A stretch of 64,000 bases of DNA. Origin: a virus. Position 1 is the first letter of the stretch, and each line of letters starts with the position of its first letter. The stretch lies in the IMG/VR virus record IMGVR_UViG_3300037245_003639, one strand, 5' to 3'. The notes beneath the pieces were generated by a model. It searched no databases and was not told the DNA's origin. It saw only the letters and a list, made by a program, of their open reading frames with translations. Both the position numbers and the translations under genes were made by a program. Of the stretch, positions 2,974-53,477 are shown piece after piece.

Positions 2974-3729
2974 TTACAAAGATAGGGCGTGAATAACACC
3001 AGTGCCAAACAGTCGTCTCTCCCAGCGCATTGCAGGCGTAATATGCTGGCATTGCCAATCCGCACAATCCATATCCTCATCAAAAACCGCTATTGTGTTC
3101 AAAATACAGTCCAATTCACCATGGCCATCACCCAATTCGATGGTTTGACTGCCGCTGGTCTTAGCTTTAACCCTTACTTTCGCGACCGTTACTGGACATG
3201 GCGGACTACCACTGCTACAGGTATTCTCGCACCAAACACACTCAACTACTCCATGTTCCTTATCGAACCTAATCACCATAAACGCGTAATACCCAGTAGT
3301 GTTATCCAAATACCAATTGGTGAAATTTAAATCGTCAAGGACGATCGTCGGCGGCCCGTCTTCAACCTCGAACAAATCTGGATCAAAATCCAAAACCGCC
3401 TGAACACCGTAACTTGCCTCGTTATCCGAATCGCCGTCATCACTCTCCCAGGCAACCGCTAACTCCACCCAAAACCACTGACCCACAGCAACCGATGAAG
3501 GAGCGGAAAGGGACAAGTAACTGCACGCATTTGTCTCGCATTCGTCTTCACAAGGAGCCCCACCATCCATCGCCGGCGTGCCCGTGCCTCCCCCATAGTT
3601 CAGGATATCGTAATATGGAAATTCCAAAACCATCGCAGCTTGCGCCTCAGGCGCGGGTGAATTAAATACGAACCATCCTCCTACAATAAGCAGGAATACA
3701 ATACAACCTAACATCTTTTTACTTCTCAT
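2974..3729 (-). CDS. Secreted Cys-rich protein of unknown function (251 aa)
   Basis: The N-terminus is signal-peptide-like: MRSKKMLGCIVFLLIVGGWFVFNSPAPEAQAA. The RBS AAAGGAGAAAGA precedes the ATG. There are many Cys and Asp residues. Confidence 0.6.
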   Translation of the reverse strand: MRSKKMLGCIVFLLIVGGWFVFNSPAPEAQAAMVLEFPYYDILNYGGGTGTPAMDGGAPCEDECETNACSYLSLSAPSSVAVGQWFWVELAVAWESDDGDSDNEASYGVQAVLDFDPDLFEVEDGPPTIVLDDLNFTNWYLDNTTGYYAFMVIRFDKEHGVVECVWCENTCSSGSPPCPVTVAKVRVKAKTSGSQTIELGDGHGELDCILNTIAVFDEDMDCADWQCQHITPAMRWERRLFGTGVIHALSL

Positions 3730-3755
3730 TCTTTCTCCTTTCAGAAAGAGTTAAA

Positions 3756-3768
3756 GGGCATAATGCCC
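3756..3768. promoter_or_regulatory. Perfect palindrome GGGCAT-A-ATGCCC between the -10 box and the RBS of gene 2974..3729. Candidate operator.
   Basis: A 6-bp inverted repeat with a 1-nt spacer sits in the 5' leader. Confidence 0.35.
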
Positions 3769-3775
3769 ATCTAAG

Positions 3776-3795
3776 CATTCATTATACACGCAGAA
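3776..3795 (-). promoter_or_regulatory. Sigma70-like -10 region, GCGTGTATAATGAA, first copy of the recurring (G/T)TGTATAATG motif
   Basis: TATAAT with an adjacent TG lies about 55 nt upstream of the ATG of gene 2974..3729. The same box recurs at 7319, 10529, 11967 and 53478. Confidence 0.5.
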
Positions 3796-3841
3796 AAGGA
3801 CGGACTCCGGAGAACCGGTGGTTGTATATACATGCCGCTTG

Positions 3842-4093
3842 TCATTTTTTATCCCAATTTATCTCTTTAGGCGTCCCATCTCCATAAAGAAAATACCGAG
3901 GCGGATGATCGCAGACATCATCGCACATGCAAGATGCTGTGCGAGCTACATGCCGCTTGTCATCATCACACCACCACGACGTGCATCCGTCATACTTCCA
4001 CTTGCCACCGAGGCGCTTTTCAAGATATTTGGTTTTGTTCTTGCAGTGGAAGTTTAAGTCCAGCTTTTTCACGTTGGTCCATCCATTTCTCAT
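3842..4093 (-). CDS. Small Cys-rich protein (83 aa)
   Basis: The ORF has about 9 Cys. It overlaps the 3' end of the HNH gene. Confidence 0.4.
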   Translation of the reverse strand: MRNGWTNVKKLDLNFHCKNKTKYLEKRLGGKWKYDGCTSWWCDDDKRHVARTASCMCDDVCDHPPRYFLYGDGTPKEINWDKK

Positions 4094-4403
4094 GTCGAGC
4101 TTTTACATCCCCATGCTTCTCCACAATCACAGAACATTCATATGCAAAATCCATAATGTTGTTAGTGGCTTTATGCCCCTTGATGCAATGATGAACGTTG
4201 AATTGGCTCTCATTCTCAATCAAATTGACTCGACTACAGGAATAGCACTCAAAACTGTCGCAACCCCATCGGTGATGGGGAAGAGAATTGTAACTTCCAC
4301 ATTGACACTGATACACCCACGTAAAATGTGTTCCGAAGTTATTATTCATACCCGCTAAGGGGACTATATCTCGTTTCTTTCGTTTAGTCAGGTCAACGAT
4401 CAT
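4020..4403 (-). CDS. HNH endonuclease (small, 127 aa)
   Basis: A Cys pair (CQCG ... CYSC) flanks the sequence VHHCIKGHKATNN, which fits the HNH H-N-H pattern. Confidence 0.55.
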   Translation of the reverse strand: MIVDLTKRKKRDIVPLAGMNNNFGTHFTWVYQCQCGSYNSLPHHRWGCDSFECYSCSRVNLIENESQFNVHHCIKGHKATNNIMDFAYECSVIVEKHGDVKARHEKWMDQREKAGLKLPLQEQNQIS

Positions 4404-4420
4404 TCTAATCTTTCTCAGGG

Positions 4421-4705
4421 TTATATATAACGGTCATCTGGAGGCTCAGCCCGAGAACCTGCTTCAGACCGCAATTTTCGCAGTTTGTTATACTCCACAT
4501 CAAATTCACGAAATAGGTCACGTAACGTTTGGAAGATATCATACGAAACACCACCAGCGTCACTAAATCGCACTGATTCCCGTAAAATATTTTTCATGCA
4601 TTTCTTTTCACATTCCTCAAGCATCATGTCTATCGCATCAGTCTCATGCTCATAAAGTTGACCATCAGGCGTCTTAAACGCGGTTATCTCTGTGGTGCAT
4701 CTCAT
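4421..4705 (-). CDS. Hypothetical protein. Corrected start at MRCTTEITAF.
   Basis: The ATG at 4703-4705 is preceded by TTTGGAGAAG. The ORF-track start at 4810 would overlap the upstream gene by 92 nt. Confidence 0.5.
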   Translation of the reverse strand: MRCTTEITAFKTPDGQLYEHETDAIDMMLEECEKKCMKNILRESVRFSDAGGVSYDIFQTLRDLFREFDVEYNKLRKLRSEAGSRAEPPDDRYI

Positions 4706-4718
4706 CGTCTTCTCCAAA

Positions 4719-4931
4719 TTAGGATTCAACATCCGGATTAAAAGGTGGAGGCCAATTCTTTTGAGTTTCTCTAATCCGTTCATAAAGAAAATCGCTTGCT
4801 TGCTCATCAAGAACTCGTTGCACTCGCAGAGCCACCGCTTTCCATTTCACAGGGCCAACTTGATCCAACAAACCAACAATATCATCTGCCGCTTGCTCTG
4901 CTTCAGGACTTATCTTTGTCGAATCTTGCAC
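4719..4931 (-). CDS. Hypothetical protein (70 aa, GTG start)
   Basis: GGAGATTGCA precedes the GTG at 4929-4931. Confidence 0.4.
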   Translation of the reverse strand: MQDSTKISPEAEQAADDIVGLLDQVGPVKWKAVALRVQRVLDEQASDFLYERIRETQKNWPPPFNPDVES

Positions 4932-5137
4932 TGCAATCTCCTAATTCCCGCCAACCGGCGAAATGGTTCCACCATTGCTTGAGAAAGAGCAACGCGACCT
5001 TCGTCGGTGTTCAATGTTTGTGCGATGATGTGATTCAAATCTACAGTACCACATTTTGGACAATAATTGAATTGTCTTTGGTCACCATGCTTGCATTTAC
5101 GACATCGCTGGAGATTATCCAGTTCCATTTTCGGCAT
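4910..5137 (-). CDS. Small protein with an N-terminal zinc ribbon. Its C-terminal half copies the capsid N-terminus.
   Basis: The N-terminus is CRKCKHG...CPKCG. The C-terminal half, IIAQTLNTDEGRVALSQAMVEP, matches residues 14-36 of the 289-aa capsid candidate. The DNA at 4981-5030 is about 48/49 identical to 15246-15296. Confidence 0.5.
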   Translation of the reverse strand: MPKMELDNLQRCRKCKHGDQRQFNYCPKCGTVDLNHIIAQTLNTDEGRVALSQAMVEPFRRLAGIRRLQCKIRQR

Positions 5138-5309
5138 CTTTAGTTTTTACTGTAGTTTGACAATCATCACAGATAAAAGAATCATCATCTTCATTTATGT
5201 ATTCATTGAGAACATTGTCACCACATTTATCACAAATAGAATGAGAAGTGCAATAAGTACAAGGCGGATTAATGTGACACGAACAACCTTCTGCTTCTTC
5301 AAATGCCAT
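5115..5309 (-). CDS. Cys-rich zinc-finger protein (64 aa)
   Basis: Motifs CSCH..CTYC...CDKCG...CDDC are present. The RBS is AAGGA. Confidence 0.5.
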   Translation of the reverse strand: MAFEEAEGCSCHINPPCTYCTSHSICDKCGDNVLNEYINEDDDSFICDDCQTTVKTKDAENGTG

Positions 5310-5314
5310 CTTAT

Positions 5315-5536
5315 TTAGTCCTTGGATCCAAACTTTACCGTCTTGGGATGTGAATATTGAGTGCCATGAACATGGATATGCTTATAACCCAATTCAAGAC
5401 CAACCACCTCTCCTTCATCATCATAGACAGGCTTGTGATCTTGTTTCAAATCAATATCACATGCATCCGCCATAAACTCGTGAGTGAGCCCTTTTCCGTC
5501 TTTATCAAAAAACTCAACAGTTATTTTTGCTTTCAT
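5315..5536 (-). CDS. Hypothetical protein. Corrected start at MKAKITVEF.
   Basis: AAAGGAGAAGTT precedes the ATG at 5534-5536. Confidence 0.5.
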   Translation of the reverse strand: MKAKITVEFFDKDGKGLTHEFMADACDIDLKQDHKPVYDDEGEVVGLELGYKHIHVHGTQYSHPKTVKFGSKD

Positions 5537-5546
5537 AACTTCTCCT

Positions 5547-5933
5547 TTATTCAGCAATTAAGCATGACTTGCAATACCACTGTTTGTTTATCCGTCGCCA
5601 TCCCGTCTTTTCGATGTCCATGACCGATACTCCCTCTTCAATACACTCAAACGAACCGTATTCATCAACTTGAAACACTGAGCATGCCTCATAAACACCA
5701 CAAGAACATTCAAATATGAGTTTCTCTGTACCAGGAATTGTGCTCATTCCAAATCTCTCAGAGAAAAATGTTAGAGCCCTTGTGAGCAAATGCTCTTTTG
5801 CCATTCGCAGATGCAATTCACATGCGTCCTCACAATGCTTGCTGGCAGGTTCGTCGCAGTATCGACATTTACCCATGGTTGTTCCTGTCATTACGAAACC
5901 AATATTAGTCATCTTCTTCTTTGAACTCATCAA
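5547..5933 (-). CDS. Cys-rich protein with CxxC motifs (about 120-128 aa)
   Basis: The sequence contains CRYCDEPASKHCEDAC ... CSCG ... CKSC. The start is ambiguous: 5933 or the ATG at 5912. Confidence 0.5.
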   Translation of the reverse strand: MMSSKKKMTNIGFVMTGTTMGKCRYCDEPASKHCEDACELHLRMAKEHLLTRALTFFSERFGMSTIPGTEKLIFECSCGVYEACSVFQVDEYGSFECIEEGVSVMDIEKTGWRRINKQWYCKSCLIAE

Positions 5934-6246
5934 CTAAACCCTCCAGCATCTCGTCATCCACATCTTTGTAGAACAACCTCAAACGCAAACTGCCATCCCA
6001 ATAAGGATAAAGTTGAACTCCATCATGCTCCCCAAAACCATAATCATAAACGTAAACATATTCCCATTGAGAAATGTGCAAAACCAACTCCTCAAAGGAC
6101 GAACATCCATCGAAGGAATAATCAAAAGACAACTCCAGGTCCAAATTCGAATCAGATGAATGATCTGCAATGACCCAGAGACAGTCTTTGCTGAGGTTGT
6201 CAATAAACTCTACGATACGCTTAAGCAAATCTTTACGAGAACTCAT
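5905..6246 (-). CDS. Hypothetical acidic protein (113 aa)
   Basis: The ORF is preceded by the GCTGCGGAGAAT motif. Confidence 0.45.
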   Translation of the reverse strand: MSSRKDLLKRIVEFIDNLSKDCLWVIADHSSDSNLDLELSFDYSFDGCSSFEELVLHISQWEYVYVYDYGFGEHDGVQLYPYWDGSLRLRLFYKDVDDEMLEGLVDEFKEEDD

Positions 6247-6275
6247 ATCACTCTATTCTCCGCAGCATCTTGGCC
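6247..6275 (-). promoter_or_regulatory. Conserved leader, GATGCTGCGGAGAAT-N-ATG, copy 1 of 2
   Basis: The plus-strand sequence attctccgcagcatc recurs at 6983-7010. Confidence 0.35.
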
Positions 6276-6283
6276 CACTCCAA

Positions 6284-6568
6284 TCAGTCATCGATGGTTT
6301 CAAAGAAGCCTTTGTATAGGATGAAACTGAGTGTTTCTTCGTCGGGATCTTCGTCGAAGACCTCATTCCAAACCTGTCCGATTTTGTCGATCAGGTCTGT
6401 ATTGTTCACAATCTCTTTGGTCGTATCCCCCTTATGAGCACAACAAATGACCCTGTACATCAATTTGGACATTGCCAAGCGAAAATTATCTTTGTTGACT
6501 TTGAACTCCAAAGTGGGCGGATAAAGAGACCGACATATTTGTTCAATATCGATACTTTGATCAGTCAT
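6284..6568 (-). CDS. Hypothetical protein (94 aa)
   Basis: The RBS is AATAGGAGTTGAA-ATG. Confidence 0.45.
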   Translation of the reverse strand: MTDQSIDIEQICRSLYPPTLEFKVNKDNFRLAMSKLMYRVICCAHKGDTTKEIVNNTDLIDKIGQVWNEVFDEDPDEETLSFILYKGFFETIDD

Positions 6569-6586
6569 TTCAACTCCTATTTCATA

Positions 6587-6982
6587 TTAGACAGGTTTCA
6601 CTTGGTCCTCTCGACCGTGCTGATCAATATTTTCAATTAGCACAATAGCGTAATCATAAGCTATTGTCGGAGTCCAGGCATGAACCTCGTAAGAGCCATT
6701 GTTCGTCTCAACTACAACTTTCCACCTAATGGATGAATACCCATCGTCATAAAATGGCTCTTCATGAATATCCTGAACTGTAACACCAAATTTTGCGTGG
6801 TACTTACGCAAGGTATCCTTTGCACTTTCAATGGACTTGTGTAAAAGTTCGCTGAAGTCTCCACCATTGCCAATCTGTGCAATTCTCCAATCAGAAGCTA
6901 CAAGACCAACATCTATATGTAGACCGGAACCTGTTGAGTCAAAGATAGTGTCAATTATCATGTCATTCTCCGCAGCATCCAC
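6587..6982 (-). CDS. Hypothetical protein (131 aa)
   Basis: The ORF is preceded by copy 2 of the GCTGCGGAGAAT motif. Confidence 0.45.
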   Translation of the reverse strand: MDAAENDMIIDTIFDSTGSGLHIDVGLVASDWRIAQIGNGGDFSELLHKSIESAKDTLRKYHAKFGVTVQDIHEEPFYDDGYSSIRWKVVVETNNGSYEVHAWTPTIAYDYAIVLIENIDQHGREDQVKPV

Positions 6983-7301
6983 TTGAGATCAGTGTGTCAC
7001 TAAGAACCTTGACCGCTTCATCCCAATCATCTAAGAGTATTTGCAGCGATTGAATATGAAGTCTAACAGGGTGGAATTTAGCCAAAGTCTTTTGCCCATC
7101 TTCGTCCATTCGCTGCAAGATGGGGATAGTTTGTTCTATCTCAGCTTTCGTGACATAGTGGCTCATACCGAGGCCGGGTTTAATGCACATTGCGATATTA
7201 GAGTTATTTAGATTGAGGTTATTCATGGTTGCTATCTGTTGACCATTTTCATCGAAAAACTCCACTGTTTTGTACGTCTGAGACTGAACTTGAATAGACA
7301 T
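6963..7301 (-). CDS. Hypothetical protein (112 aa)
   Basis: TGTATAAT and AAGGAGA lie upstream of the ATG. Confidence 0.45.
   Translation of the reverse strand: MSIQVQSQTYKTVEFFDENGQQIATMNNLNLNNSNIAMCIKPGLGMSHYVTKAEIEQTIPILQRMDEDGQKTLAKFHPVRLHIQSLQILLDDWDEAVKVLSDTLISSGCCGE
6983..7010 (-). promoter_or_regulatory. Conserved leader, GATGCTGCGGAGAAT-N-ATG, copy 2
   Basis: Same 15-nt core as at 6247-6275. Confidence 0.35.
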
Positions 7302-7318
7302 AATTGTCTCCTTACCTC

Positions 7319-7348
7319 AATTATACACTGGGCTTAGCTCCAGGCCCA
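7319..7348 (-). promoter_or_regulatory. Sigma70-like -10 box, CAGTGTATAATTGAGG, with an upstream imperfect hairpin. A degenerate copy of the 65-bp repeat.
   Basis: Compare with the repeats at 10529 and 11967. Confidence 0.4.
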
Positions 7349-7371
7349 CGTCAGCGGGATATGATCGAGAA

Positions 7372-7680
7372 TCACGCCTCAGCCCCACCAAATCCTCGAC
7401 AATAGAACTCTTTGTTACAGTGAGGACAGGTTATATCCTGCGGATGATCATCTGTCGGCTCTTTGCTGCAAAAAGGAAGGTTCTCCAGCCGATCATATTC
7501 AGCCTCTTCTGCGGCCTGGGCTTTCTCCCCTTCGGTCAGCTCCATAGGAAAACCATGGGCCAGCCGCAATGCCTTGTCAAAATCATATCCGGCTTCTTCA
7601 ACAAATCTTTTGCACTCTAATATAGGCAGAGCTGTCGCCTTACGCAATCTTACAATGACCGTATTTGGCAAAGAAAACAT
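7372..7680 (-). CDS. Hypothetical protein with a C-terminal CxxC motif. Corrected start at MFSLPNTVIV.
   Basis: The ATG at 7678-7680 is preceded by the conserved GGAGATTGAAG motif. Confidence 0.5.
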   Translation of the reverse strand: MFSLPNTVIVRLRKATALPILECKRFVEEAGYDFDKALRLAHGFPMELTEGEKAQAAEEAEYDRLENLPFCSKEPTDDHPQDITCPHCNKEFYCRGFGGAEA

Positions 7681-7715
7681 CTTCAATCTCCAGATACTTC
7701 GCGCTTTGCTAATTC
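7681..7715 (-). promoter_or_regulatory. Conserved promoter-like element a: GCGAAGTATCTGGAGATTGAAG-ATG
   Basis: One of eight copies of the 35-nt consensus. Confidence 0.5.
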
Positions 7716-7894
7716 TGCATGTACAAATAAGCGCAATCAATCCAGGTGCGCTCAAATTTCTTGTTCTGATCTTTCAATTTATGAGCTTCCCGTTTTGTTT
7801 TACATACGGCACGAATTACAGCATCGTGACTCACTAATTCATAAAGCACCCAAAATTTACTGCGAGTTTGCACAACCTTGGCAACCTTTGCCAT
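7709..7894 (-). CDS. Hypothetical protein. Corrected start at MAKVAKV.
   Basis: The ORF-track TTG start lies inside the motif. The ATG is at 7892-7894. Confidence 0.45.
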   Translation of the reverse strand: MAKVAKVVQTRSKFWVLYELVSHDAVIRAVCKTKREAHKLKDQNKKFERTWIDCAYLYMQN

Positions 7895-7928
7895 TTCAAT
7901 CTCCAAATATTTCTCTAATTGAAGAAGT
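7895..7928 (-). promoter_or_regulatory. Conserved promoter-like element b: GAGAAATATTTGGAGATTGAA-ATG
   Basis: Motif copy. Confidence 0.45.
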
Positions 7929-8283
7929 TCGTTGTTACATCAAGTAAGTTTGGAGCGACAAATGCACCACGATAAGAACTGTCGATTACTTCAAACAAAT
8001 GCAAATAACCTTTTTGCACTTGTAGCAGTTTGTCAATCTGATCTTCAAATACGGTATCAGTTATAGCATACGCAGGCACAAGAAAACATTCACCACAATC
8101 GATAATGTCAGGAGAACTTCGGTTAGCCATAACCACGACGCGCTTAGAATACCGATTAAAACAGATTGCTCTGTCTTGTGGCCACTTGTAATAGGATGCC
8201 TGGATAGTGTTATGGCTGGTTTTGATTGTTCCTATGGTATGCGTCCACCAGGCAATTGTTCTAACAGGCAACCAAATTATCAT
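7915..8283 (-). CDS. Hypothetical protein (122 aa)
   Basis: The RBS is AAAGGTGA. Confidence 0.45.
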   Translation of the reverse strand: MIIWLPVRTIAWWTHTIGTIKTSHNTIQASYYKWPQDRAICFNRYSKRVVVMANRSSPDIIDCGECFLVPAYAITDTVFEDQIDKLLQVQKGYLHLFEVIDSSYRGAFVAPNLLDVTTNFFN

Positions 8284-8474
8284 TGTTTATCACCTTTGAA
8301 ATACCGATACAATTCACCATCAGAAAATGTTCTCAACTCATCAGAATGATACAAACGAGGACGGATGGGTTCGGTCATCATGTAAACATATATGTTGTTT
8401 TCATAACGTGGATTGTTTTTAAGTTCATCACCAACTACTTGGTCATGTATGCGAGATGTTCTATTCTGTTTCAT
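8280..8474 (-). CDS. Hypothetical protein (64 aa)
   Basis: The ORF overlaps its neighbours by 4 nt. Confidence 0.4.
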   Translation of the reverse strand: MKQNRTSRIHDQVVGDELKNNPRYENNIYVYMMTEPIRPRLYHSDELRTFSDGELYRYFKGDKQ

Positions 8475-8989
8475 TGGTTGACTTCCAGAAGTGACAAAAT
8501 TTCATCCATTTTTATCTGCTTGATAATATCAGATGCTTCATCACGCATAGATAACTGAAGATCATAAACCTTCTTGTGCCAATCATAATGTATGTTAGGA
8601 CATTCATGCTCGTCCTGTTTTGTTGTTGGACTTCCAGCAGCAACATATTGCTTGTGAGAAACAGAACAACAACTACCCAAAACCTTGCGAACAACACTCC
8701 TGTTAACGTTCATCTTCGTATCACAAATGCCACAATAAACACTCTCATATTTATCCGGACTTGTTGATAGTTTGTCCTGAAAATGTGCATTAGGCTCTTT
8801 TGTCGAACGTTGAGGAAACATCTTCTGTTTGCCCGGGGGATAATAAGATCCTGGATTGGGAGCAAGCGGCAACTTGCCCGCATATACTCGTCTGTTGTTC
8901 TTATCCCTTATGACAACTTCAGCGTCACCAGCAGGATTTTCGTGAACTTGCACCAATTCAAAATCCGCGAATACTTCCTCATTCATCAT
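8471..8989 (-). CDS. Hypothetical protein (172 aa)
   Basis: The ORF is preceded by motif copy c. Confidence 0.5.
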   Translation of the reverse strand: MMNEEVFADFELVQVHENPAGDAEVVIRDKNNRRVYAGKLPLAPNPGSYYPPGKQKMFPQRSTKEPNAHFQDKLSTSPDKYESVYCGICDTKMNVNRSVVRKVLGSCCSVSHKQYVAAGSPTTKQDEHECPNIHYDWHKKVYDLQLSMRDEASDIIKQIKMDEILSLLEVNQ

Positions 8990-9272
8990 TCAAATCTCCA
9001 GATGCTTCTCTATCCGGTGAAAGTCTTCCGTTCTCTCTCTCGGATTCATAAAGTGAAAGCGCAACCTCTACCAACTTTTTCACCGCATTATCATATTCTT
9101 CGTTCATCCGAAGACCAGATCTCCAATTGTCCAAAGCGTGTTTCAAACTTCTTATATACAGATCATCTTGAAGAGGACAACCAGCACCAGTTGTACTCAT
9201 ATTCACTTTTTCGGCAATTGATAAGAGCCCTTCCATGTTATTAACACCAGGCCACCATTCAGGACGATACAT
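8979..9272 (-). CDS. Hypothetical protein. Corrected start at MYRPEWW.
   Basis: The ORF-track start is a TTG inside the motif. Confidence 0.45.
   Translation of the reverse strand: MYRPEWWPGVNNMEGLLSIAEKVNMSTTGAGCPLQDDLYIRSLKHALDNWRSGLRMNEEYDNAVKKLVEVALSLYESERENGRLSPDREASGDLNDE
8990..9030 (-). promoter_or_regulatory. Conserved promoter-like element c: CACCGGATAGAGAAGCATCTGGAGATTTGA-ATG
   Basis: Motif copy. Confidence 0.45.
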
Positions 9273-9318
9273 CTTCAATCTCCAAATACTTCGCTATGCG
9301 GTGAAAATCACTTTGTTC
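9273..9318 (-). promoter_or_regulatory. Conserved promoter-like element d, full consensus: TTCACCGCATAGCGAAGTATTTGGAGATTGAAG-ATG
   Basis: Motif copy. Confidence 0.5.
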
Positions 9319-9341
9319 AGCTTTATCTTCCATGTCGTTTT

Positions 9342-9683
9342 TTAGGGCAAAGGATCAACCATACCATGTTGACGCATAAATCTCCGACGTTCCATTTTAT
9401 CCTCAAATATTTTGTTCGGTGTTAACTCACGATCCCGTTTCTCAAGTTCCTCTTTAAGTGGAACTGTTTCTTCTTCTTCTTCTTCTTTTGCCCACTTTTT
9501 GCGGGCTTCTCTGGCTGTTTTCTCTCCCACTATGTTACATAGATAACCACCGCATGACCAACACTCCCATTCACAACATTCTTCAAGAGTGGGATCAACA
9601 ACGTTGACTTTCTCGCATTTAGAGCACACTTGAGATAATATATGCTTGTTATTTTCCGTTAACTTTTCGCCAATCTTTGTCAT
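9342..9683 (-). CDS. Zinc-ribbon protein with a Glu-rich tail. Corrected start at MTKIGEK.
   Basis: The sequence contains CSKCEK...CCEWECWSCGGYLC. The ATG is preceded by motif copy e. Confidence 0.5.
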   Translation of the reverse strand: MTKIGEKLTENNKHILSQVCSKCEKVNVVDPTLEECCEWECWSCGGYLCNIVGEKTAREARKKWAKEEEEEETVPLKEELEKRDRELTPNKIFEDKMERRRFMRQHGMVDPLP

Positions 9684-9915
9684 CTTCAATATCTCCAGAT
9701 ACATACTTGTCGCTATCGTCTTCTCTGGGTTCTGCCAGTCGAATGATTTCTTCCAAATGTTCAATTATAAATGGAGCAACAGTATACGTCTTCATGCCAC
9801 TTGAAAACATCCCTCCAAAATCATCCAAATCGTCTTTGTGTTCGCAAAGAAATCGCTCGATACGACCAATAGGATTGTTCTTAAATGTCACGGTTTTTAC
9901 TCGTCGCTCGGTCAT
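9649..9915 (-). CDS. Hypothetical protein. Corrected start at MTERRVKT.
   Basis: The ATG is preceded by motif copy f. Confidence 0.45.
   Translation of the reverse strand: MTERRVKTVTFKNNPIGRIERFLCEHKDDLDDFGGMFSSGMKTYTVAPFIIEHLEEIIRLAEPREDDSDKYVSGDIEDDKDWRKVNGK
9684..9722 (-). promoter_or_regulatory. Conserved promoter-like element e: CGATAGCGACAAGTATGTATCTGGAGATATTGAAG-ATG
   Basis: Motif copy. Confidence 0.45.
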
Positions 9916-9950
9916 CTTCAATCTCCAAATACTTCCGACAAACAAGCCCT
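9916..9950 (-). promoter_or_regulatory. Conserved promoter-like element f: GTCGGAAGTATTTGGAGATTGAAG-ATG
   Basis: Motif copy. Confidence 0.45.
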
Positions 9951-10524
9951 AAAATTTGTTGTCAGCTTTGGCAATTAGCTTGTCAAACGGAGCCAGTTTT
10001 TCTACAGGCACCGATAAACCTCTATGCCCTGTCCTGGGAATATTTCCAAGTTTACCATGCTTCTTTATAATCGATCCATTCGCAGAGCATATACCTGCAA
10101 TATGAACATGTGGTTCATTGGTTTCGTCCAAATGGACAAAGACCTGCATATAGCCAAACACGTTCGCTTTCTTTAGTTCTTCCTCTTTAACAAACAGATT
10201 CAGACCGCCTCTGAAAGGAGCATATTTGCTTGTTTTGATATTCCAAATAGTCGTCTTGCCAGAGATATCTATGTGGACATCCCCTTCATCCCCTTTACCA
10301 CAAACCAACTCCAACGAACAAATCTTCTTTGCTTTGCCAAGTTTATCAAAGACGATGAGACTACCCAACAAATCCAGAAAATCACCTTGCCCCCTAAACT
10401 GCTCTTCTATTTCGTTAAAACCGGATCTGCGTTGCTGAGGAACGAGGTTTTGATAGAAGTGCTCTGCAAAACTAAGCAAGGGCTGAGGGATGGCTATATA
10501 AAAGTCGTTTAATATTGCTTGCAT
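9949..10524 (-). CDS. Hypothetical protein (191 aa)
   Basis: The ATG lies immediately downstream of the 65-bp repeat with a TATAAT box. Confidence 0.5.
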   Translation of the reverse strand: MQAILNDFYIAIPQPLLSFAEHFYQNLVPQQRRSGFNEIEEQFRGQGDFLDLLGSLIVFDKLGKAKKICSLELVCGKGDEGDVHIDISGKTTIWNIKTSKYAPFRGGLNLFVKEEELKKANVFGYMQVFVHLDETNEPHVHIAGICSANGSIIKKHGKLGNIPRTGHRGLSVPVEKLAPFDKLIAKADNKF

Positions 10525-10528
10525 TTTT

Positions 10529-10595
10529 CATTATACACTGAGCTTGGCTTCAAGCTCGGCAATTTCAACCCATTATGAGAGACCACGCAGCATCT
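10529..10595 (-). repeat. 65-bp repeat, copy 1: hairpin GAGCTTG-AAGC-CAAGCTC followed by the -10 box AGTGTATAATG
   Basis: It is near-identical to 11967-12030. Its 3' part encodes the C-terminus AAWSLIMG of gene 10565..10783. Confidence 0.6.
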
Positions 10596-10783
10596 ATAAG
10601 TTCATCATCCCATGTCTCTACATATTCATAAGGCAATCCATGTTGAGCCGTCCGAGATGATATGACGTGAATCTGCAAATCTCGGAATTCTTCTTCAGAC
10701 ATGTCTACTGATTGGCCTGGAGCAACAGACCTATTATATAAGTTCATTTTTGTTGATTCGATGTTGGCGATTGTTGTGCTCAT
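10565..10783 (-). CDS. Hypothetical protein (72 aa)
   Basis: The ORF is preceded by motif copy g. Confidence 0.45.
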   Translation of the reverse strand: MSTTIANIESTKMNLYNRSVAPGQSVDMSEEEFRDLQIHVISSRTAQHGLPYEYVETWDDELIDAAWSLIMG

Positions 10784-10830
10784 TTCATCTCCAAATACTT
10801 CGCTATGCGGTGAAAATCACCCTTCTTGCA
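10784..10830 (-). promoter_or_regulatory. Conserved promoter-like element g: TTCACCGCATAGCGAAGTATTTGGAGATGAA-ATG
   Basis: Motif copy. Confidence 0.5.
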
Positions 10831-11026
10831 CCCACGAATTTGATACACCCATATAGTATATTCGTTCCAAAACGCGAGAAGCAAATCGACTGTCACATTT
10901 GGTACAAATCATCAATGGCTCACGCCCGCGATGTTTACCTCCATTCTCAAGATCTGCTAGGAACGCATTTTGGTTAGTTGTGCCACAATTCGGACATTCA
11001 AATTGGTAAACTCGTTTCTTACCCAT
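10817..11026 (-). CDS. Zinc-ribbon protein. Corrected start at MGKKRVY.
   Basis: The sequence contains CPNCG...CTKC. The ORF-track N-terminus is translated through motif copy h. Confidence 0.5.
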   Translation of the reverse strand: MGKKRVYQFECPNCGTTNQNAFLADLENGGKHRGREPLMICTKCDSRFASRVLERIYYMGVSNSWVQEG

Positions 11027-11072
11027 CTTTATCTCCAGATACTTTTCTATGCGGTGAAAGTCACCTATAGAT
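11027..11072 (-). promoter_or_regulatory. Conserved promoter-like element h: TTCACCGCATAGAAAAGTATCTGGAGATAAAG-ATG
   Basis: Motif copy. Confidence 0.5.
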
Positions 11073-11092
11073 TCAGGTTCTAATACTTGCAT

Positions 11093-11347
11093 TTACTTGA
11101 CCCAACTTAATGACCAACTGTCTCCAGGAGCACTATCAATACTGCCAAGCGGATGATGAAAATACAAAGGGTAGTCTTTCCCAAAACAACCGTTAGAACA
11201 GGTGCATTCTTTCCTTTGTGGGTGGTCAGCTTGGGCTGTGTGGTATTTCTCTATTTCCTCGTCACTCACAGCTTTCGTCCAGTCTATTTCTGGCGGTGGT
11301 GGCAAATCGTGGATTTCTAATTTATTTCCGCACACTGGACAGTACAT
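11093..11347 (-). CDS. Zinc-ribbon protein (84 aa)
   Basis: The sequence contains CPVCG ... CTCSNGC. The RBS is AAAGGTGAATC-ATG. Confidence 0.5.
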   Translation of the reverse strand: MYCPVCGNKLEIHDLPPPPEIDWTKAVSDEEIEKYHTAQADHPQRKECTCSNGCFGKDYPLYFHHPLGSIDSAPGDSWSLSWVK

Positions 11348-11374
11348 GATTCACCTTTACTTTCATGTTTTCTT

Positions 11375-11530
11375 TCAATCTGGCCATTTCATCAACTCGG
11401 GCAATGGGAGCGGCAACCATTCTCCGCTACATTTAGGACAACAGTGTTCATCTTTTTTTGAGGCGGGAATTTCTTCGCCGCAAAAAGGACATGTGAGAGT
11501 GACAAATTCGATGATGGTGATTTCAGTCAT
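11375..11530 (-). CDS. Micro-ORF (51 aa) encoding a zinc-ribbon protein that is missing from the ORF track
   Basis: The protein reads MTEITIIEFVTLTCPFCGEEIPASKKDEHCCPKCSGEWLPLPLPELMKWPD. Its ATG at 11530 overlaps the stop of the upstream gene (GATGACTGA), which suggests translational coupling. Confidence 0.45.
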   Translation of the reverse strand: MTEITIIEFVTLTCPFCGEEIPASKKDEHCCPKCSGEWLPLPLPELMKWPD

Positions 11531-11948
11531 CAATCATTCCCCATCCACCTTTGCGAGGCGGTGGACGACGTTCCACTTTTTTATCGTTAACAATACAAGA
11601 ACCATCTTTACTCAATTGGAGGCTCCCACTTAATCGCCCGTTGGCCAAATCAACCCACATGGTTTCTTCGACCTTCCCTGCATGAGTGGTGTCGTCTGTA
11701 TCCGAAATACAAGGGAATGCATACTTGAGTTTGTCCGCCAATGCTATCGTAAAATCTATTTCCCCCGATAAAAGCCCCTCCAGGGTATCCATGCTAATTC
11801 CAGCGTTTTCGCAAACTTGTTCGTTCGAAAGTTTAAAGAGTTTTATGTGCCCCAACAGTGTATCAGATACAGTTTTGCATTTCAGAGCATCTATATCTCG
11901 ATTTTCTATCCACTCCATGTTTTTCATATCATCTTCTATTAGATCCAT
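11523..11948 (-). CDS. Hypothetical protein (141 aa)
   Basis: CTCAGTGTATAATGAATCTGGAGATATGAGAC-ATG lies upstream, giving a -10 box plus an RBS. Confidence 0.5.
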   Translation of the reverse strand: MDLIEDDMKNMEWIENRDIDALKCKTVSDTLLGHIKLFKLSNEQVCENAGISMDTLEGLLSGEIDFTIALADKLKYAFPCISDTDDTTHAGKVEETMWVDLANGRLSGSLQLSKDGSCIVNDKKVERRPPPRKGGWGMIDD

Positions 11949-11966
11949 GTCTCATATCTCCAGATT

Positions 11967-12030
11967 CATTATACACTGAGTTTGGCTTCAAGCTCGGCAA
12001 TACTCAACCCATTATGAGAGACCACGCAGC
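11967..12030 (-). repeat. 65-bp repeat, copy 2: hairpin plus AGTGTATAATG. It carries a 27-aa gene-fragment paralog ending AAWSLIMG.
   Basis: About 90% identical to copy 1. Confidence 0.6.
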
Positions 12031-12121
12031 GACGATGGGCTCATATTTGTCACAATCACATTTCCAGATCCAATGTTGAGCATTCATATAGTTCTCGCCA
12101 ACGAGTACAATCCAAGATGAC

Positions 12122-13306
12122 TCAAAAATCACCCAAATCCAACCCTAGCTCTTTTAGTTCGTTAAAAATCCTTGCAGAATTTACATATGACTGAGTGTAA
12201 TTTGGCTCAGTGGCAATAGTTAGCAATTTGGATTGACGAAGTAAAAAATTGAGTAATGAGAAATCGTTCTTCTGGAATTGTCGAGAGAAATCTTCCTTAT
12301 CCCAGATTCTTGGATCAAAACCATCAATATCATGAACAGCAAAATCCAAATCAATATCAAACCACACAGGTACATCCCAATTTTGCAAAAGACCATGATC
12401 TTTTATAGCATTCTGGTCTAAATTTAATAATTCCCTTATTTCTTCCAATCTCTCATCTTCAGAGAGATCAGAGTGAAAATTTTCAAACAATCCCAAATAA
12501 TAATGAGGGACAGATCCATGTCTCTCTTTTTGTGGATAATTACCCTCGGCTGGGCAATCGGCAAAGAAGGTTATAACGCCTTTCACCATACCCATTTTTG
12601 CTGCCACATAAACCCATGAATCATCTAAAGGGGCTAATTTATTAGCAAATGAGAGGCATTCATCAACATCAGTTATATCATTCATTCCAAATGATCCAAG
12701 TGAATCATAATAATGATCAGGACAGGCATCATTATGTTTGTCAAATCGAATCAACACTGGTGGAGATGTAAATATTCCATCTTTGAATGCAGCCCATATT
12801 GCAGGAATCACCGCCCGATGATCTTCAATGAAAACATCCGTTCTTCCATCTATAGGATAACCTCTATTCACTCTGAAATTCATGCTTTGGTCAAGCCTGT
12901 CCATGTGACAATAACAATCACGATAAGAACTTTTGTCCAATTCAAGAATACCCGACAAGATGGAAACGAAATCGTCAATTTCCTCATCTGAGATACCGCC
13001 TGATTGTCCATCCATATCAAACCAGGCTAACTCAAAAACAACAACCGCGTTTCTGTTATAAATGCTAAACCCAATTATGTTCCCGCGTTTATTTTTAGCC
13101 TTATGAACATCTATGGCCCTCGAAATAGATTCCAAAGCATCCCAGGCGTCATCAGTGGGATTCACAACAAAATTAACATAAAATGCCCCATGCTCAACAT
13201 GCTCAGTATCAGGCTTTTTGTGACCACCGCATGAAGATGCTACCCGAACATCCGGAATTGAATTGAGCACCTCAATGAGTTTTTTAACTCTCTTTTCGAT
13301 CATCAA
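12122..13306 (-). CDS. Hypothetical protein (394 aa)
   Basis: This is a long ORF. It overlaps the LAGLIDADG gene by 4 nt (ATGA). Confidence 0.55.
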   Translation of the reverse strand: MMIEKRVKKLIEVLNSIPDVRVASSCGGHKKPDTEHVEHGAFYVNFVVNPTDDAWDALESISRAIDVHKAKNKRGNIIGFSIYNRNAVVVFELAWFDMDGQSGGISDEEIDDFVSILSGILELDKSSYRDCYCHMDRLDQSMNFRVNRGYPIDGRTDVFIEDHRAVIPAIWAAFKDGIFTSPPVLIRFDKHNDACPDHYYDSLGSFGMNDITDVDECLSFANKLAPLDDSWVYVAAKMGMVKGVITFFADCPAEGNYPQKERHGSVPHYYLGLFENFHSDLSEDERLEEIRELLNLDQNAIKDHGLLQNWDVPVWFDIDLDFAVHDIDGFDPRIWDKEDFSRQFQKNDFSLLNFLLRQSKLLTIATEPNYTQSYVNSARIFNELKELGLDLGDF

Positions 13307-14295
13307 TATAAGTCTCCAGCCATGATCAGTTTCTTTGCACTCTCAATATGCTCAGGCATCATCCTCGGCCTACCTTTAGCACTCGCTCGATAACACCCCA
13401 GCCGACCCGTCTTCACCAGATGACTTAATCTATTATACTGGACGCCAAGCTCATCAGCGACCTCTCGCAGGCGCTTAGCCTCAAATCTCCACTCTGGCAG
13501 GTCGAACTTATAGTCATAACATTTGATGGGAGATTGGCGACCTATAAAATCGAAGAAGGCAGGAATGCCTTTGGCTTTTATCCAGATGCGGTTGTCGTTA
13601 TTACGGTGACAGGCGATACCTTTCTCTCTCAGCTTTTCCGCGAGAAATTCGACATTCTCAGGTGTGAAACCATCAGTTGAAAGGCGGACAACGATAGCAT
13701 CACCAGTCTGAACCAGAGACCCATCACCGAGATACCACATCATAACTGACTTGGGGGTTATGCGCACATCTTCAGGAGGTTGCTTCTTGCCTCCGTCCGG
13801 ATACCAACGAAGATACTGTTTATGGAAATCAGGGTGCGTCTTCGTTTGCCCATTCCACCGAAACCCTGATTTCATACTTTGATCTCTATATTGTGCGGTT
13901 TTTGGCTTGTATCGATGGAAGGGAGTCATCATGTGGTAACAGAAGCCTTCGTGTTCTAAGCCGCATGTAAGCCTTGCGACTTCGGTTTTGCTTCTACTGT
14001 CTGTTGAGATACATCCATCTCCTAAAAGGAATCCATCTAACGCTTCGACGGTGGGTTCCGTCATGTATGAGATCTCATAATCCAGAGGATCAGGATCTCT
14101 TTCTCGTTTGGCTTCAGATCTTGTCCTCCCTATTCCATGTTTCTTAGCATACTTGAATAAAGTTCCGATTGAAATGTCTATACTTTGTTCAAGAAGCATC
14201 GCTCGGATCTTAGGATAAGACATCCTCGCTTCAACATAGTGAGTGACAAAAAACTCTTCAGTCAACAGATCAGAATAATGCGGTTGCTCTCTCAT
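13303..14295 (-). CDS. LAGLIDADG homing endonuclease with two motifs
   Basis: The motifs GFLLGDGCIS and MWYLGDGSLV are two LAGLIDADG-like dodecapeptides. The RBS is AAGGAGAT-CGAAA-ATG. Confidence 0.75.
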   Translation of the reverse strand: MREQPHYSDLLTEEFFVTHYVEARMSYPKIRAMLLEQSIDISIGTLFKYAKKHGIGRTRSEAKRERDPDPLDYEISYMTEPTVEALDGFLLGDGCISTDSRSKTEVARLTCGLEHEGFCYHMMTPFHRYKPKTAQYRDQSMKSGFRWNGQTKTHPDFHKQYLRWYPDGGKKQPPEDVRITPKSVMMWYLGDGSLVQTGDAIVVRLSTDGFTPENVEFLAEKLREKGIACHRNNDNRIWIKAKGIPAFFDFIGRQSPIKCYDYKFDLPEWRFEAKRLREVADELGVQYNRLSHLVKTGRLGCYRASAKGRPRMMPEHIESAKKLIMAGDLY

Positions 14296-14384
14296 TTTCG
14301 ATCTCCTTCGGTAGCATTATACACTTCTCGCTACAAGGTTACCGAAATCTCACTATAATTTTCGTCGCTTTTCATTTTCCACAA

Positions 14385-14424
14385 ATGAACATAAAGAAAG
14401 GAGCGACCCTTTCGGGCCGCTCCC
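14385..14424 (-). terminator. Rho-independent terminator after the capsid gene
   Basis: A GC-rich hairpin, GGAGCGGCCC-GAAA-GGGTCGCTCC, has 9 of 10 bp paired. On the minus strand it is followed by the U-rich tract CTTTCTTTATGTT. Confidence 0.55.
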
Positions 14425-14466
14425 TTGAATCTACTGAGTTGTCACGTAAGTCCTTATACTACAGGA

Positions 14467-40419: not shown

Positions 40420-40562
40420 TTGAGTCCTCTAACGCAGCTACGAGCTTTCGTACATACTCCCTGGGGTATATACTTCTGAAATAACGCTTCAAACTCCTGG
40501 AATTTTCAGGAGACAAGCTGGCGTAGAGACAAACCCAGTGTTCATCCGACAATGAAATGAAT

Positions 40563-42709: not shown

Positions 42710-42758
42710 CGTTTATCTCCGTTTGCACAGATTTATACAAGAAAAAGGTTTACAACTC

Positions 42759-50299: not shown

Positions 50300-50327
50300 G
50301 GATAGCCTCAACTATCCTATTTTACAC

Positions 50328-53461: not shown

Positions 53462-53477
53462 AGTAGTCCTCTTAGAC

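Follow-up and report, generated by a model that had tools for sequence, protein, structure and literature searches.

Features of the locus

The window, by which we mean the whole stretch of DNA analysed, comprises 64 kb and comes from an uncultured huge phage with a genome of roughly 403 kb. By capsid protein, Bacillus phage G (54% identity) is the sole cultured relative of this phage. Gene order on the upstream side of the capsid gene is conserved among relatives, and everything downstream of the capsid-gene terminator varies. A Shine-Dalgarno (SD) sequence is present in 47 of 61 genes, against a background of 17%. The features on which our analysis centres are the following.

14397-14426, minus strand: canonical intrinsic terminator behind the major capsid gene, with a 13-bp G+C-rich stem and a U-tract, -24.1 kcal/mol
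14315-14324, minus strand: box P1, GTGTATAATG, 20 nt before ATG 14295 of a LAGLIDADG homing endonuclease
11967-11976, minus strand: box P2, GTGTATAATG, in repeat copy 2, 19 nt before ATG 11948 of a 141-aa ORFan
10529-10538, minus strand: box P3, GTGTATAATG, in repeat copy 1, 5 nt before ATG 10524 of a 191-aa ORFan
7318-7327, minus strand: box P4, GTGTATAATT, in degenerate repeat copy 3, 18 nt before ATG 7301 of a 112-aa ORFan
3780-3789, minus strand: box P5, GTGTATAATG, 51 nt before ATG 3729 of a 251-aa protein
53480-53489, minus strand: box P6, TTGTATAATG, 19 nt before ATG 53461 of a peptide deformylase
56201-56208, minus strand: box P7, TGTATAAT, overlapping the stop codon of an HD/kinase gene, 20 nt before ATG 56180
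50319-50326, minus strand: candidate variant box, TGTAAAAT, 19 nt before ATG 50299 of a 1099-aa gene
10527-10648, minus strand: repeat copy 1 (core 10527-10591, weaker collinear in-frame homology to 10648)
11965-12081, minus strand: repeat copy 2 (core 11965-12030, weaker homology to 12081)
7318-7353, minus strand: degenerate repeat copy 3, with the hairpin in the same place and an 'AG' spacer still preceding TGTATAAT
10540-10557, minus strand: inverted repeat GAGCTTG-AAGC-CAAGCTC, exact, at about -34 to -17 of P3
11978-11995, minus strand: inverted repeat GAGCTTG-AAGC-CAAACTC, with a central C·A mismatch, -4.4 kcal/mol
7330-7347, minus strand: inverted repeat GGGCCTG-GAGC-TAAGCCC, diverged, -7.1 kcal/mol
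7686-11969, minus strand: nine copies of a ribosome-site module, (GTGAYTTTCACCGSATAG)MRAAGYATYTGGAGAT(TGAAG)ATG, a second junction cassette

Box P1 follows the capsid-gene terminator at a distance of about 75 nt, and P2 is fused to one copy of the ribosome-site module (ATCTGGAGAT). The product of the P5 gene has a signal-peptide-like N-terminus and the next gene codes for a DUF1573 protein; a palindrome, TGTATATACA, stands about 45 nt upstream of this box. The peptide deformylase gene behind P6 is followed by that of the ribonucleotide reductase large subunit, and downstream of P7 there is a 135-aa ORFan and then a DHH protein.

The boxes are enriched, sense-strand and gene-proximal

The 8-mer TGTATAAT occurs seven times in the window when 1.63 copies are expected, and no shuffled sequence reached seven. 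All seven copies are on the minus strand, which is the coding strand, and all are at gene 5' ends, close before start codons; six are intergenic and the remaining one overlaps a stop codon. The longer form KTGTATAATG is found exactly five times, always on the minus strand (3780, 10529, 11967, 14315 and 53480), with about 0.12 expected and none of 100 shuffles giving five. Neither plain TATAAT (29 observed in the window, 27.5 expected) nor the one-mismatch variants of TGTATAAT (44 observed, 48 expected) were enriched. The five minus-strand TG-TATAAT boxes reported in an earlier note on this sequence are thus real, but that set missed the boxes at 14315 and 56201. Two of its positions, 10529 and 11967, are correct and two others, 3776 and 53478, need a shift of 2-4 nt, while the copy that it placed at 7319 does contain TGTATAAT but ends in T at 7318-7327, so that it is not an exact match to KTGTATAATG.

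Measured from the last base of TATAAT, the distances to the ATG are, in coordinate order, 51, 18, 5, 19, 20, 19 and 20 nt, that is, 18-20 nt in five of the seven cases. The range of 15-55 nt previously given for the distance to the gene start accommodates all boxes but the one at 10530, with its 5 nt. This short distance predicts a leaderless mRNA, and the gene at 10524, which has no SD, is probably leaderless. Leaderless mRNAs are known from lambda cI transcribed from PRM, and are widespread in Actinobacteria and Deinococcus. Six related phages also have the arrangement TGTATAAT-N5-7-ATG before long ORFs. As a difference from leaderless systems, the present phage has a strong SD in most of its genes.

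No -35 hexamer was found when the seven TGTATAAT sites were scanned. Canonical extended -10 promoters (TGnTATAAT, with TG at -15/-14) need no -35, and the present boxes resemble them in this respect, but here the TG adjoins the hexamer and is therefore at -14/-13.

Conservation in related phages

We compared relatives with 72-95% capsid-protein identity at the capsid-gene terminator. TGTATAAT comes directly after this terminator in L001-L004, L009, L020, L031, L032, L064, L074, L076 and L079; in L032 there is a perfect TTGACA-N17-TATAAT, as in full sigma70/sigmaA promoters, and in L079 the box is paired with TTGAAA. The spacing between box and ATG is bimodal in relatives, 5-9 nt in L001, L020, L064, L076, L077 and L070 versus about 22-32 nt in the others. 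A true terminator often immediately precedes TGTATAAT, for instance in L074 and L008. Bacillus phage G (JN638751), of the same capsid lineage, likewise has a run of small genes after the capsid gene, punctuated by modules of a terminator and a TATAAT box in the intergenic gaps. In contrast to the phage studied here, it puts a full hairpin and U-tract terminator before each box and does not use TGTATAAT, and no 65-nt repeated cassette was seen in its post-capsid region.

Anatomy of the repeat and its hairpin

To the core of copy 1 a 72-aa ORF contributes its last 8 codons and its stop, and the hairpin and promoter box make up the rest; copy 2 has in its core the end of a 27-aa ORF, the mismatched hairpin and the box. 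Over about 65 nt the two cores have 63 identical positions and one 1-nt indel, in full agreement with the near-identical unit described before at 10529 and 11967, and the copy at 7319 is indeed degenerate (65% identity over 37 nt). The repeat spans about -62 to +3 of the promoter together with the tail of a duplicated small gene, and on its 3' side it stops sharply between the -10 and the SD/ATG. Copies 1 and 2 are direct, 1,438 bp apart with five small ORFs between them, and are unchanged in L081 and L085, two independent short assemblies of the same phage. Searches of related genomes found none carrying the cassettes, and consequently give no direct sign of cassette-mediated rearrangement. 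The repeat is present on just two or three promoters and a single hairpin copy is stable, which counts against the explanation that we favour below.

The stem-loop previously ascribed to the unit is exact in copy 1 and has one mismatch in copy 2. It folds stably in copy 1 (-11.1 kcal/mol, z = -4), while for copies 2 and 3 shuffled sequence does at least as well; z-scores for the wider regions around the hairpins are unremarkable. The inverted repeat at 7330 has a C·A mismatch and a G·T pair, and one of its A-T pairs has become G-C by a compensatory change. Hairpins of 7 bp number 41 in the window, against 24 ± 6 in shuffles.

The ribosome-site module has its 14-mers at 7686, 7899, 8994, 9278, 9691, 9921, 10787, 11031 and 11956, nine copies within 4.3 kb, each before an unrelated small ORF; two of them, between unrelated genes, are identical in 34 of 34 nt. 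The small ORFs flanking the cassettes are not paralogues of each other, and no homologues were found in 80 related loci or in protein databases.

Probable promoters and proposed junction cassettes

The sense-strand location at gene 5' ends, the spacing of about 19 nt and the conservation in relatives indicate that the boxes are likely real promoters, independent of a -35. On balance we think it probable that TGTATAAT marks genuine -10-type promoters read by a sigma70-family enzyme, and that the repeat is a duplicated junction cassette. Their perfect TATAAT, strand and closeness to genes are those of sigma70/sigmaA bacterial and phage early promoters, from which they differ in the TG abutting the hexamer and in an 8-mer that is invariant rather than degenerate. 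The promoter reading of the earlier note is partly supported: strand, placement, spacing and conservation are as for real -10-type boxes, and a -35 is absent. The reader would most likely be a sigma70-family holoenzyme, with the host enzyme as the simplest candidate. The boxes would provide internal promoters within a long series of co-directional genes, serving accessory functions: the homing endonuclease, ORFans, a secreted protein, and the peptide deformylase with ribonucleotide reductase. With the box fixed about 19 nt before the start codon, the predicted mRNA would begin just before the SD. Such a promoter cassette is a credible, yet fairly ordinary, regulatory feature.

Concerning the host, a TATAAT-type -10 together with heavy use of SD argues against an expression grammar of the Bacteroidota type, and this part of the earlier proposal stands. 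Its proteobacterial alternative is unsupported: the -35 is absent, the TG is not canonical, the sole cultured relative by capsid protein is a Bacillus phage, and the peptide deformylase carries no host signal. The early timing that the note proposed for the promoters is likewise unsupported.

The closest analogue of the repeat is the promoter-early stem-loop (PeSL) cassette of T4-like phages, described in RB49/phi1, PST/T4 and nt-1/KVP40 (Arbiol et al. 2010, PMC2839356; Comeau et al. 2014, PMC4122927). The two have in common that they are brief, conserved composites placed between small ORFans in a hypervariable region; in each, an upstream stop codon is followed by a stem-loop, a sigma70-like -10, and then SD and ATG. 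Furthermore, a stem-loop in the spacer/-35 position is the commonest PeSL arrangement, the edge of the present repeat coincides with the position between -10 and SD/ATG where PeSL crossovers have been mapped (PMC2839356), and the 1.4 kb between our copies fits the sizes of PeSL mini-circles (about 0.4-1.4 kb). The differences are that the phage lineages are unrelated, with a phage-G-type instead of a T4-type capsid; that the present cassette has neither a -35 box nor an AT-rich upstream region; that its stem is weak and not of the G/C-run type; that only 2-3 copies exist in 64 kb; that about 27 nt of upstream coding sequence are included; and that any promoter, terminator or recombination activity of it is putative. 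On our reading, one promoter region would have been duplicated along with the final codons of the small gene before it, two near-identical copies and a diverged third surviving. The repeat and the nine ribosome-site modules would then be repeated junction cassettes between unrelated ORFans, in the variable region downstream of the capsid gene, working like PeSL in function and architecture. As had been suggested, the stem-loop might be an RNA-processing site and the repeats might be recombination hotspots.

Alternative explanations

A more modest view of the repeat, less probable in our judgement but deserving attention, is that its roughly 65 nt (up to about 120 nt) are what remains of a recent event in which the 3' end of a small gene was duplicated locally with the downstream promoter; the inverted repeat would be fortuitous, and there would be no role as a cassette or in recombination. 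The homology does extend beyond the upstream border of the core, where both ORFs keep the frame (AQH...E-x-I-x-AAWSLIMG) and differ in four codons, two of them synonymously; good copies are only two, the C·A mismatch breaks the stem in copy 2, and 7-bp hairpins are frequent by chance. However, near-perfect identity is confined to the promoter region and decays steeply elsewhere, the older third copy still has the AG spacer, one compensatory pair and its hairpin in the same position, and an independent second junction repeat has nine copies in the same 4.3 kb.

As to the promoters, the boxes might owe their recognition to a specificity factor encoded by the phage, be it a sigma (gp55-like or other) or a polymerase, instead of to the host housekeeping sigma, and would then form an invariant -10-only class like the T4 late promoter TATAAATA. 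We hold this to be unlikely, since the core is the exact sigma70 consensus, two relatives add the -35 elements described above (TTGACA at 17 nt in L032, TTGAAA in L079), the genes driven are accessory and none is structural, and the window proteins scanned, from 64 kb of roughly 403 kb, include no sigma factor or RNA polymerase. Nevertheless, an invariant 8-mer with no excess of one-mismatch variants is a pattern that fits a phage-specific factor better than it fits degenerate host promoters, the missing -35 also speaks for such a factor, and the 8-mer is common to relatives that range from about 30% to 49% G+C. At the equivalent post-capsid site, other relatives have conserved another motif, TGCCGATA(T/A), a TGTATAAA(T) variant stands 23 nt upstream of the terminase gene, and the clade-specific palindrome TGTATATACA accompanies the boxes.

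The stem-loop had also been considered part of a terminator-promoter module, and an intrinsic terminator or RNA-processing site could end the upstream transcript before the promoter restarts transcription. The hairpin starts 8 nt past the stop of the upstream ORF and is stable in copy 1, true terminators often hold the corresponding place in relatives, and the G·T pair and compensatory change of copy 3 fit a sense-strand RNA structure; attenuation of transcription has been shown for PeSL stem-loops (PMC2839356). Nonetheless, there is no U-tract 3' of the stem (AGUGUAUAAUG), the terminator scan did not report the hairpin, and its three copies (-11.1, -4.4 and -7.1 kcal/mol) compare poorly with the capsid-gene terminator, our reference for a true terminator in this phage, where -24.1 kcal/mol is combined with a U-tract; two of the three, moreover, do not surpass shuffled sequence. 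The repeat hairpin is weak and is not a classical intrinsic terminator, and we give this explanation little credence. At best, the inverted repeat at -34 to -17 would be a weak attenuator, an RNA 3'-end element or a protein-binding site.

A last and quite improbable explanation takes the 7-4-7 inverted repeat as an operator or activator site that replaces the missing -35 and binds a dimeric protein, either the 141-aa product encoded directly downstream of copy 2 or a MotA-like activator (the repeat contains GCTTGA, similar to the Mot box TGCTT): the position is exactly that of a -35 or activator box, presence at three of seven promoters is what a co-regulated subset would predict, a further 27 nt upstream are conserved, and phage nt-1 has PmSL cassettes of a Mot box and a -10 (PMC4122927), but half-site symmetry is not retained in copies 2 and 3, and the 141-aa protein has no helix-turn-helix match in Pfam, PDB sequences or a HMMER search of 1.8 billion proteins, its only weak match being the helical-repeat region of a SIR2-STAND protein and its structure model being of low confidence (pLDDT 47.7).

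Returning to the -10-type promoters, the candidate variant box TGTAAAAT at 50319 comes immediately after a canonical terminator, and its spacing to the start codon equals that of the other boxes.

Genomic context

Almost all genes in the window are on the minus strand, and the recognisable ones include those for the major capsid protein (14467-15336), portal protein, terminase large subunit, ribonucleotide reductase, peptide deformylase, RNA ligase, and endonucleases of the HNH and LAGLIDADG types. Bacillus phage G has a capsid protein with 54% identity to that of the window, and other matches are mycobacteriophage-type capsids. Capsid proteins 72-95% identical to it are found on 80 IMG/VR contigs of up to 548 kb, and two window proteins are recorded on a contig of 403,172 bp. 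These capsid matches and the record on the large contig assign the window to an uncultured huge phage in the capsid lineage of Bacillus phage G, the one relative that has been cultured. A near-identical DNA search with window 3000-15000 against 50,697 phage records gave no match, and Rfam and tRNA scans of the window found nothing. Among the relatives gene order is kept 5' of the capsid gene, and everything 3' of the capsid-gene terminator differs.

An exact 8-mer upstream of accessory genes

The motif KTGTATAATG has five exact matches in the window, all on the minus strand (3780, 10529, 11967, 14315 and 53480), with about 0.12 expected, and the 8-mer TGTATAAT has seven, again all on the minus strand, adding 7320 and 56201 (1.63 expected). 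Neither TATAAT by itself nor the one-mismatch variants of the 8-mer are enriched in the window, so that the exact 8-mer is the special element. What an earlier note had observed, a five-copy list of such boxes, is real and more extensive than reported, but the copy placed at 7319 has T as its last base, two boxes had been omitted (an exact copy at 14315, and 56201), and two coordinates were 2-4 nt off.

Six of the seven boxes are intergenic and one overlaps a stop codon; the distances from box to ATG are 51, 18, 5, 19, 20, 19 and 20 nt. The genes served are accessory: the LAGLIDADG endonuclease, ORFans, a secreted protein with a DUF1573 protein, peptide deformylase with ribonucleotide reductase, and an ORFan with a DHH protein. 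Three of the boxes belong to copies of a repeated junction cassette made of gene tail, hairpin and box, listed here with a variant box.

Cassette copies, their hairpins and a variant box
10527-10591, minus strand: repeat copy 1; hairpin at 10540-10557, -11.1 kcal/mol, z = -4
11965-12030, minus strand: repeat copy 2; hairpin with a central C·A mismatch, -4.4 kcal/mol
7318-7353, minus strand: repeat copy 3, degenerate; hairpin at 7330-7347, -7.1 kcal/mol, position and AG spacer kept
50319, minus strand: variant box TGTAAAAT, directly 3' of a canonical terminator, ATG 19 nt away

Probable promoter character of the boxes

The strand, position and spacing of the boxes fit a -10 element and the comparative data agree, and their reading as promoters is well supported. 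All seven contain an exact TATAAT on the coding strand, 5-51 nt upstream of gene starts. In -10 element and position they are like sigma70-family promoters; they differ from them in the -35 and in the canonical extended -10. A scan for two hexamers returned none of the seven boxes, inspection of the flanks found no -35, and a TTGACA-like hexamer 16-18 nt upstream is thus missing at the window boxes. The canonical extended -10 is TGnTATAAT, in which TGn at -15/-14 compensates for a missing -35; at the boxes TG abuts TATAAT (-14/-13) in 7/7 copies.

In several relatives (L001-L004, L009, L020, L031, L032, L064, L074, L076 and L079) TGTATAAT stands just 3' of the capsid-gene terminator, and the next long ORF follows it in a bimodal manner, after 5-9 nt or after about 22-32 nt. 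A -35 is present among the relatives only in L032, where it is perfect (TTGACA-N17-TATAAT), and in L079 (TTGAAA at 17 nt). Early timing of the box-driven units is plausible.

The alternative that a phage-encoded specificity factor reads the boxes stays live, because they have no -35, because their TG directly adjoins TATAAT, unlike that of TGnTATAAT, and because the 8-mer is without degeneracy. The T4 late promoter TATAAATA, which is gp55-dependent, is likewise an invariant 8-bp element consisting of a -10 only; the boxes resemble it in their invariance and missing -35 but differ from it in sequence. No phage-encoded sigma was seen among the scanned window proteins, most of the genome lying outside the window. 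An N4-type hairpin promoter was rejected, since the hairpin is missing at 4/7 boxes and no phage polymerase was seen, and a shared late-promoter motif (CATAGAAG) was dropped because the search was confounded by coding bias.

The only inference on the host that the TATAAT-type box and the heavy use of Shine-Dalgarno (SD) sequences permit is one against a Bacteroidota-like system, and a "proteobacterial" host is without support; the peptide deformylase, with 30-37% identity to many phyla, is uninformative and carries no host signal.

Some other sites in the window resemble the boxes. The divergent intergenic region 58782-59024 has CCATATAAT boxes on both strands (58856 minus, 58985 plus), with a CCATATAAT box 34 nt before the only long plus-strand gene (59025-61814); these are candidates for TATAAT promoters without TG. 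At 42732-42740, 23 nt upstream of the terminase large-subunit ATG, TGTATAAAT differs from the box by one base; the core of this variant, TATAAATC, is similar to the T4 late promoter.

Predicted leaderless start and SD use

SD precedes 47/61 genes. At 10530 the sequence reads TATAAT-GAAAA-ATG and the gene has no SD, which is the layout of a leaderless gene; the short spacing from box to ATG and the missing SD together predict a leaderless mRNA. The site corresponds to the short spacing class (5-9 nt) of the relatives, its layout recurs at L001:2795, L020:11147, L064:11107, L076:10948 and L077:11650, and some leaderless genes are probable in this lineage.

Inverted repeats were also seen at window 14296-14350, 50299-50330 and 53461-53490 and, in a relative, at L002:8183-8240 and L002:11162-11225, with 5' arms across or upstream of the -10/start region and 3' arms against SD/ATG. 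Transcripts that read through would fold there (-10 to -17 kcal/mol, z down to -3), and those begun at the box would be unstructured. These sites (14316, 50319, 53481 and the two in L002) are suggestive, with weak statistics, of hairpins that hide the SD in read-through transcripts only. A similar layout is present in T4 lysozyme and I-TevI, where a hairpin hides the ribosome site only in read-through transcripts.

The junction cassette

The repeat of about 65 nt is confirmed, its cores at 10527-10591 and 11965-12030 having 63 matches and one indel, as is the degenerate third copy at 7318-7353. Counted from the predicted start, near-identity spans about -62 to +3, as much as a promoter region covers. 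The core breaks off sharply on the 3' side, between the -10 and SD/ATG, and fades gradually on the 5' side. Local alignment lengthens the repeat to about 120 nt (10527-10648 against 11965-12081). This extension is in frame in both upstream ORFs (AQH ... E-x-I-x-AAWSLIMG), with 2/4 differing codons synonymous, so that the repeat arose by duplication of a gene tail together with the promoter that follows it. The predicted promoter part is almost unchanged while the coding part has diverged.

Short contigs of this phage that were assembled independently have identical cassettes, including the mismatch of copy 2. Exact and degenerate pattern scans of IMG/VR and JGI metagenome contigs gave no match to either the hairpin-plus-promoter cassette or the ribosome-site module described below, and the only cassette-bearing sequences recovered were identical pieces of this very phage. 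Its short-read contigs (L081, L082 and L085; Logan SRR11832402, JGI 3300043172) end at or beside the cassettes, one place being the ribosome-site module near 10820 and the other the promoter cassette near 10525; repeats that exceed the assembly k-mer in length would have this effect.

Only one hairpin, that of copy 1, is stable; in the hairpin of copy 3 one pair has changed from A-T to G-C in a compensatory way, one is G·T and one is mismatched. The earlier note had suggested a terminator-promoter module and a calculation of folding energies, and neither the calculation nor the sequence favours a terminator. The sequence 3' of the hairpins is AGTGTATAATG, with a U-tract after none of the three, and the G+C-rich stem followed by a U-tract that marks an intrinsic terminator is missing. 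Furthermore, a terminator scan that does detect the capsid-gene terminator returned 0/3 hairpins, whose energies (-11.1, -4.4 and -7.1 kcal/mol) compare with -24.1 kcal/mol for that terminator. Hairpins with a perfect 7-bp stem are frequent in the window, where 41 were counted; shuffles gave 24 ± 6. We conclude from the folds and flanking sequence that the cassette hairpin is no intrinsic terminator. It may serve as a weak attenuator, as an RNA-end element or as a protein-binding site, or may be just a passenger. The inverted repeat lies at -34 to -17, in the place of a -35 or activator site. A role as XRE-type or helix-turn-helix regulator is not borne out for the 141-aa protein coded by the gene 3' of copy 2, which has no Pfam or PDB match, a low-confidence structure model and, in an exhaustive HMMER search, a weak helical-repeat match alone.

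The ribosome-site module and the ORFan region

A second repeat family, the ribosome-site module AAGTATYTGGAGAT(TGAAG)ATG, is present in nine copies at 7686-11969. An upstream extension, GTGAYTTTCACCGSATAG, is found on 4/9 copies, and two copies are identical at 34/34 nt. In the form (GTGAYTTTCACCGSATAG)MRAAGYATYTGGAGAT(TGAAG)ATG the module precedes unrelated small ORFs, and copy 2 of the promoter cassette is fused to it. Substitutions in the module look synonymous in the frame DFHRI(A/E)KYLEI; a coding peptide (DFHRIAKYLEI) was rejected, as the frame relative to the downstream ATG varies among copies and the module is not consistently translated.

The small ORFs between these elements show no mutual relationship, and no homologues of them were found in 80 related loci or large protein databases. 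Searches with the 191-aa, 141-aa and 394-aa cassette-flanking proteins gave the phage's own sequences alone, from short contigs or the 403-kb contig. The ORFan region is without counterpart in 80 relatives, and the adjoining structural module keeps its gene order.

Relation to known cassettes

In T4-like phages, promoter-early stem-loop cassettes (PeSL), consisting of stop codon, stem-loop, sigma70-like promoter and SD/ATG, flank ORFans and recombine (PMC2839356; PMC4122927), and their crossovers have been mapped between the -10 and SD/ATG (PMC2839356). The upstream stop codon, stem-loop, -10 and SD/ATG are present in 3/3 repeat copies. Two near-identical copies and one diverged copy are located, like PeSL, within 4.7 kb of ORFans, and the layout of the region is that of the hyperplastic regions of T4-like phages. 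However, the repeat copies lack a -35 and the AT-rich upstream region, and their stem is weak, the stem-loop being stable in one copy alone. The phage itself, with a capsid protein of the phage-G lineage, is not T4-like, and the cassette is therefore a PeSL analogue and no family member. By this analogy, the cassette would work like PeSL. The feature is thus of a known type, here in a phage lineage of which little is known. Phage G has a similar small-gene region after the capsid gene, punctuated by terminator-plus-TATAAT junctions. An integron attC-like reading was rejected, there being no long imperfect palindrome, no conserved GTTRRRY core and no integrase.

The earlier note had also raised recombination at the repeats. 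We consider it unlikely that the cassette and the nine-copy module are active recombination substrates, through which ORFan genes would be cut out, inserted and exchanged, for instance by way of a 1,438-bp circle with the five ORFs between 10527 and 12030. If they were, PeSL-type modular shuffling would extend from T4-like phages to an unrelated huge phage-G-like lineage, and the T4-like mobile regulatory cassette mechanism would also build ORFan regions in other large phages. In connection with this, the invariant TGTATAAT and the palindrome TGTATATACA might make up a clade-specific transcription code with a phage-encoded reader.

The boxes provide a first testable promoter map for this uncultured huge-phage lineage, in which one invariant 8-mer would mark the starts of accessory-gene units at a fixed ATG spacing of ~19 nt, probably with some leaderless genes. 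In practice, the motif can help to set the bounds of transcription units and to find accessory-gene modules in related metagenomic phages. A few points are of moderate interest: the invariant box that lacks a -35, the genes that are probably leaderless, and the junction cassettes, of which there are two families.

Other motifs and repeats

The 10-bp palindrome TGTATATACA occurs three times in the window (3823-3832, 40466-40473 and 56165-56172) against 0.2 expected. In the relatives it occurs 77 times (about 42 expected) and gathers around TATAAT boxes, on either side of them, with many copies in L001, L017, L019/L020, L039 and L048; it may be the operator of a clade-specific regulator.

Relatives without TGTATAAT after the capsid-gene terminator (L007, L008, L010-L012, L014, L025, L058, L061, L062, L065, L067, L071 and L072) share another motif, (T)TGCCGATA(T/A)(A/T) or TGTCGATAA, about 100-200 nt after the capsid gene, which may be an alternative promoter type. 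This motif is not enriched in the window; the window cassette has TTGCCGA just 5' of the hairpin.

A free-standing LAGLIDADG homing endonuclease gene (window 13303-14295), with its own TGTATAAT box in the window, lies directly 3' of the capsid gene, and at this capsid-adjacent position it is kept in 23 related loci with 52-66% identity. The capsid gene of relatives L009, L019, L020 and L064 has an interruption near codons 33-59. Furthermore, 75 nt of the window (4956-5030) are 89% identical to capsid-gene codons ~13-37 (15221-15295), ~10 kb apart, and are embedded in frame within a 75-aa zinc-ribbon ORF (4910-5137). The interrupted genes and the capsid-like stretch suggest an insertion hot spot for introns or endonucleases.

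At the start of the DUF1573 gene (2726-2780) there is an 11-nt tandem repeat, CAGGCAGGTGA, in about 3.5 copies, and just upstream of it a G+C-rich intergenic region of 196 nt (2778-2973) with an unremarkable fold (z = -1.1) and no Rfam match. Finally, a relative whose capsid protein is 93% identical to that of the window (L003, IMGVR_UViG_3300014205_000198) carries two CRISPR-like arrays, at 14101-14464 and 17086-17386, with six and five copies of a 36-nt repeat, GTTGCAATTCACTCCCC(T/C)TTTC(A/G)GGGGAGAAACACC, at a period of 65-66 nt. Degenerate single copies of the repeat lie near 16324 and 16888, and a conserved trailer of 98 nt follows both arrays.
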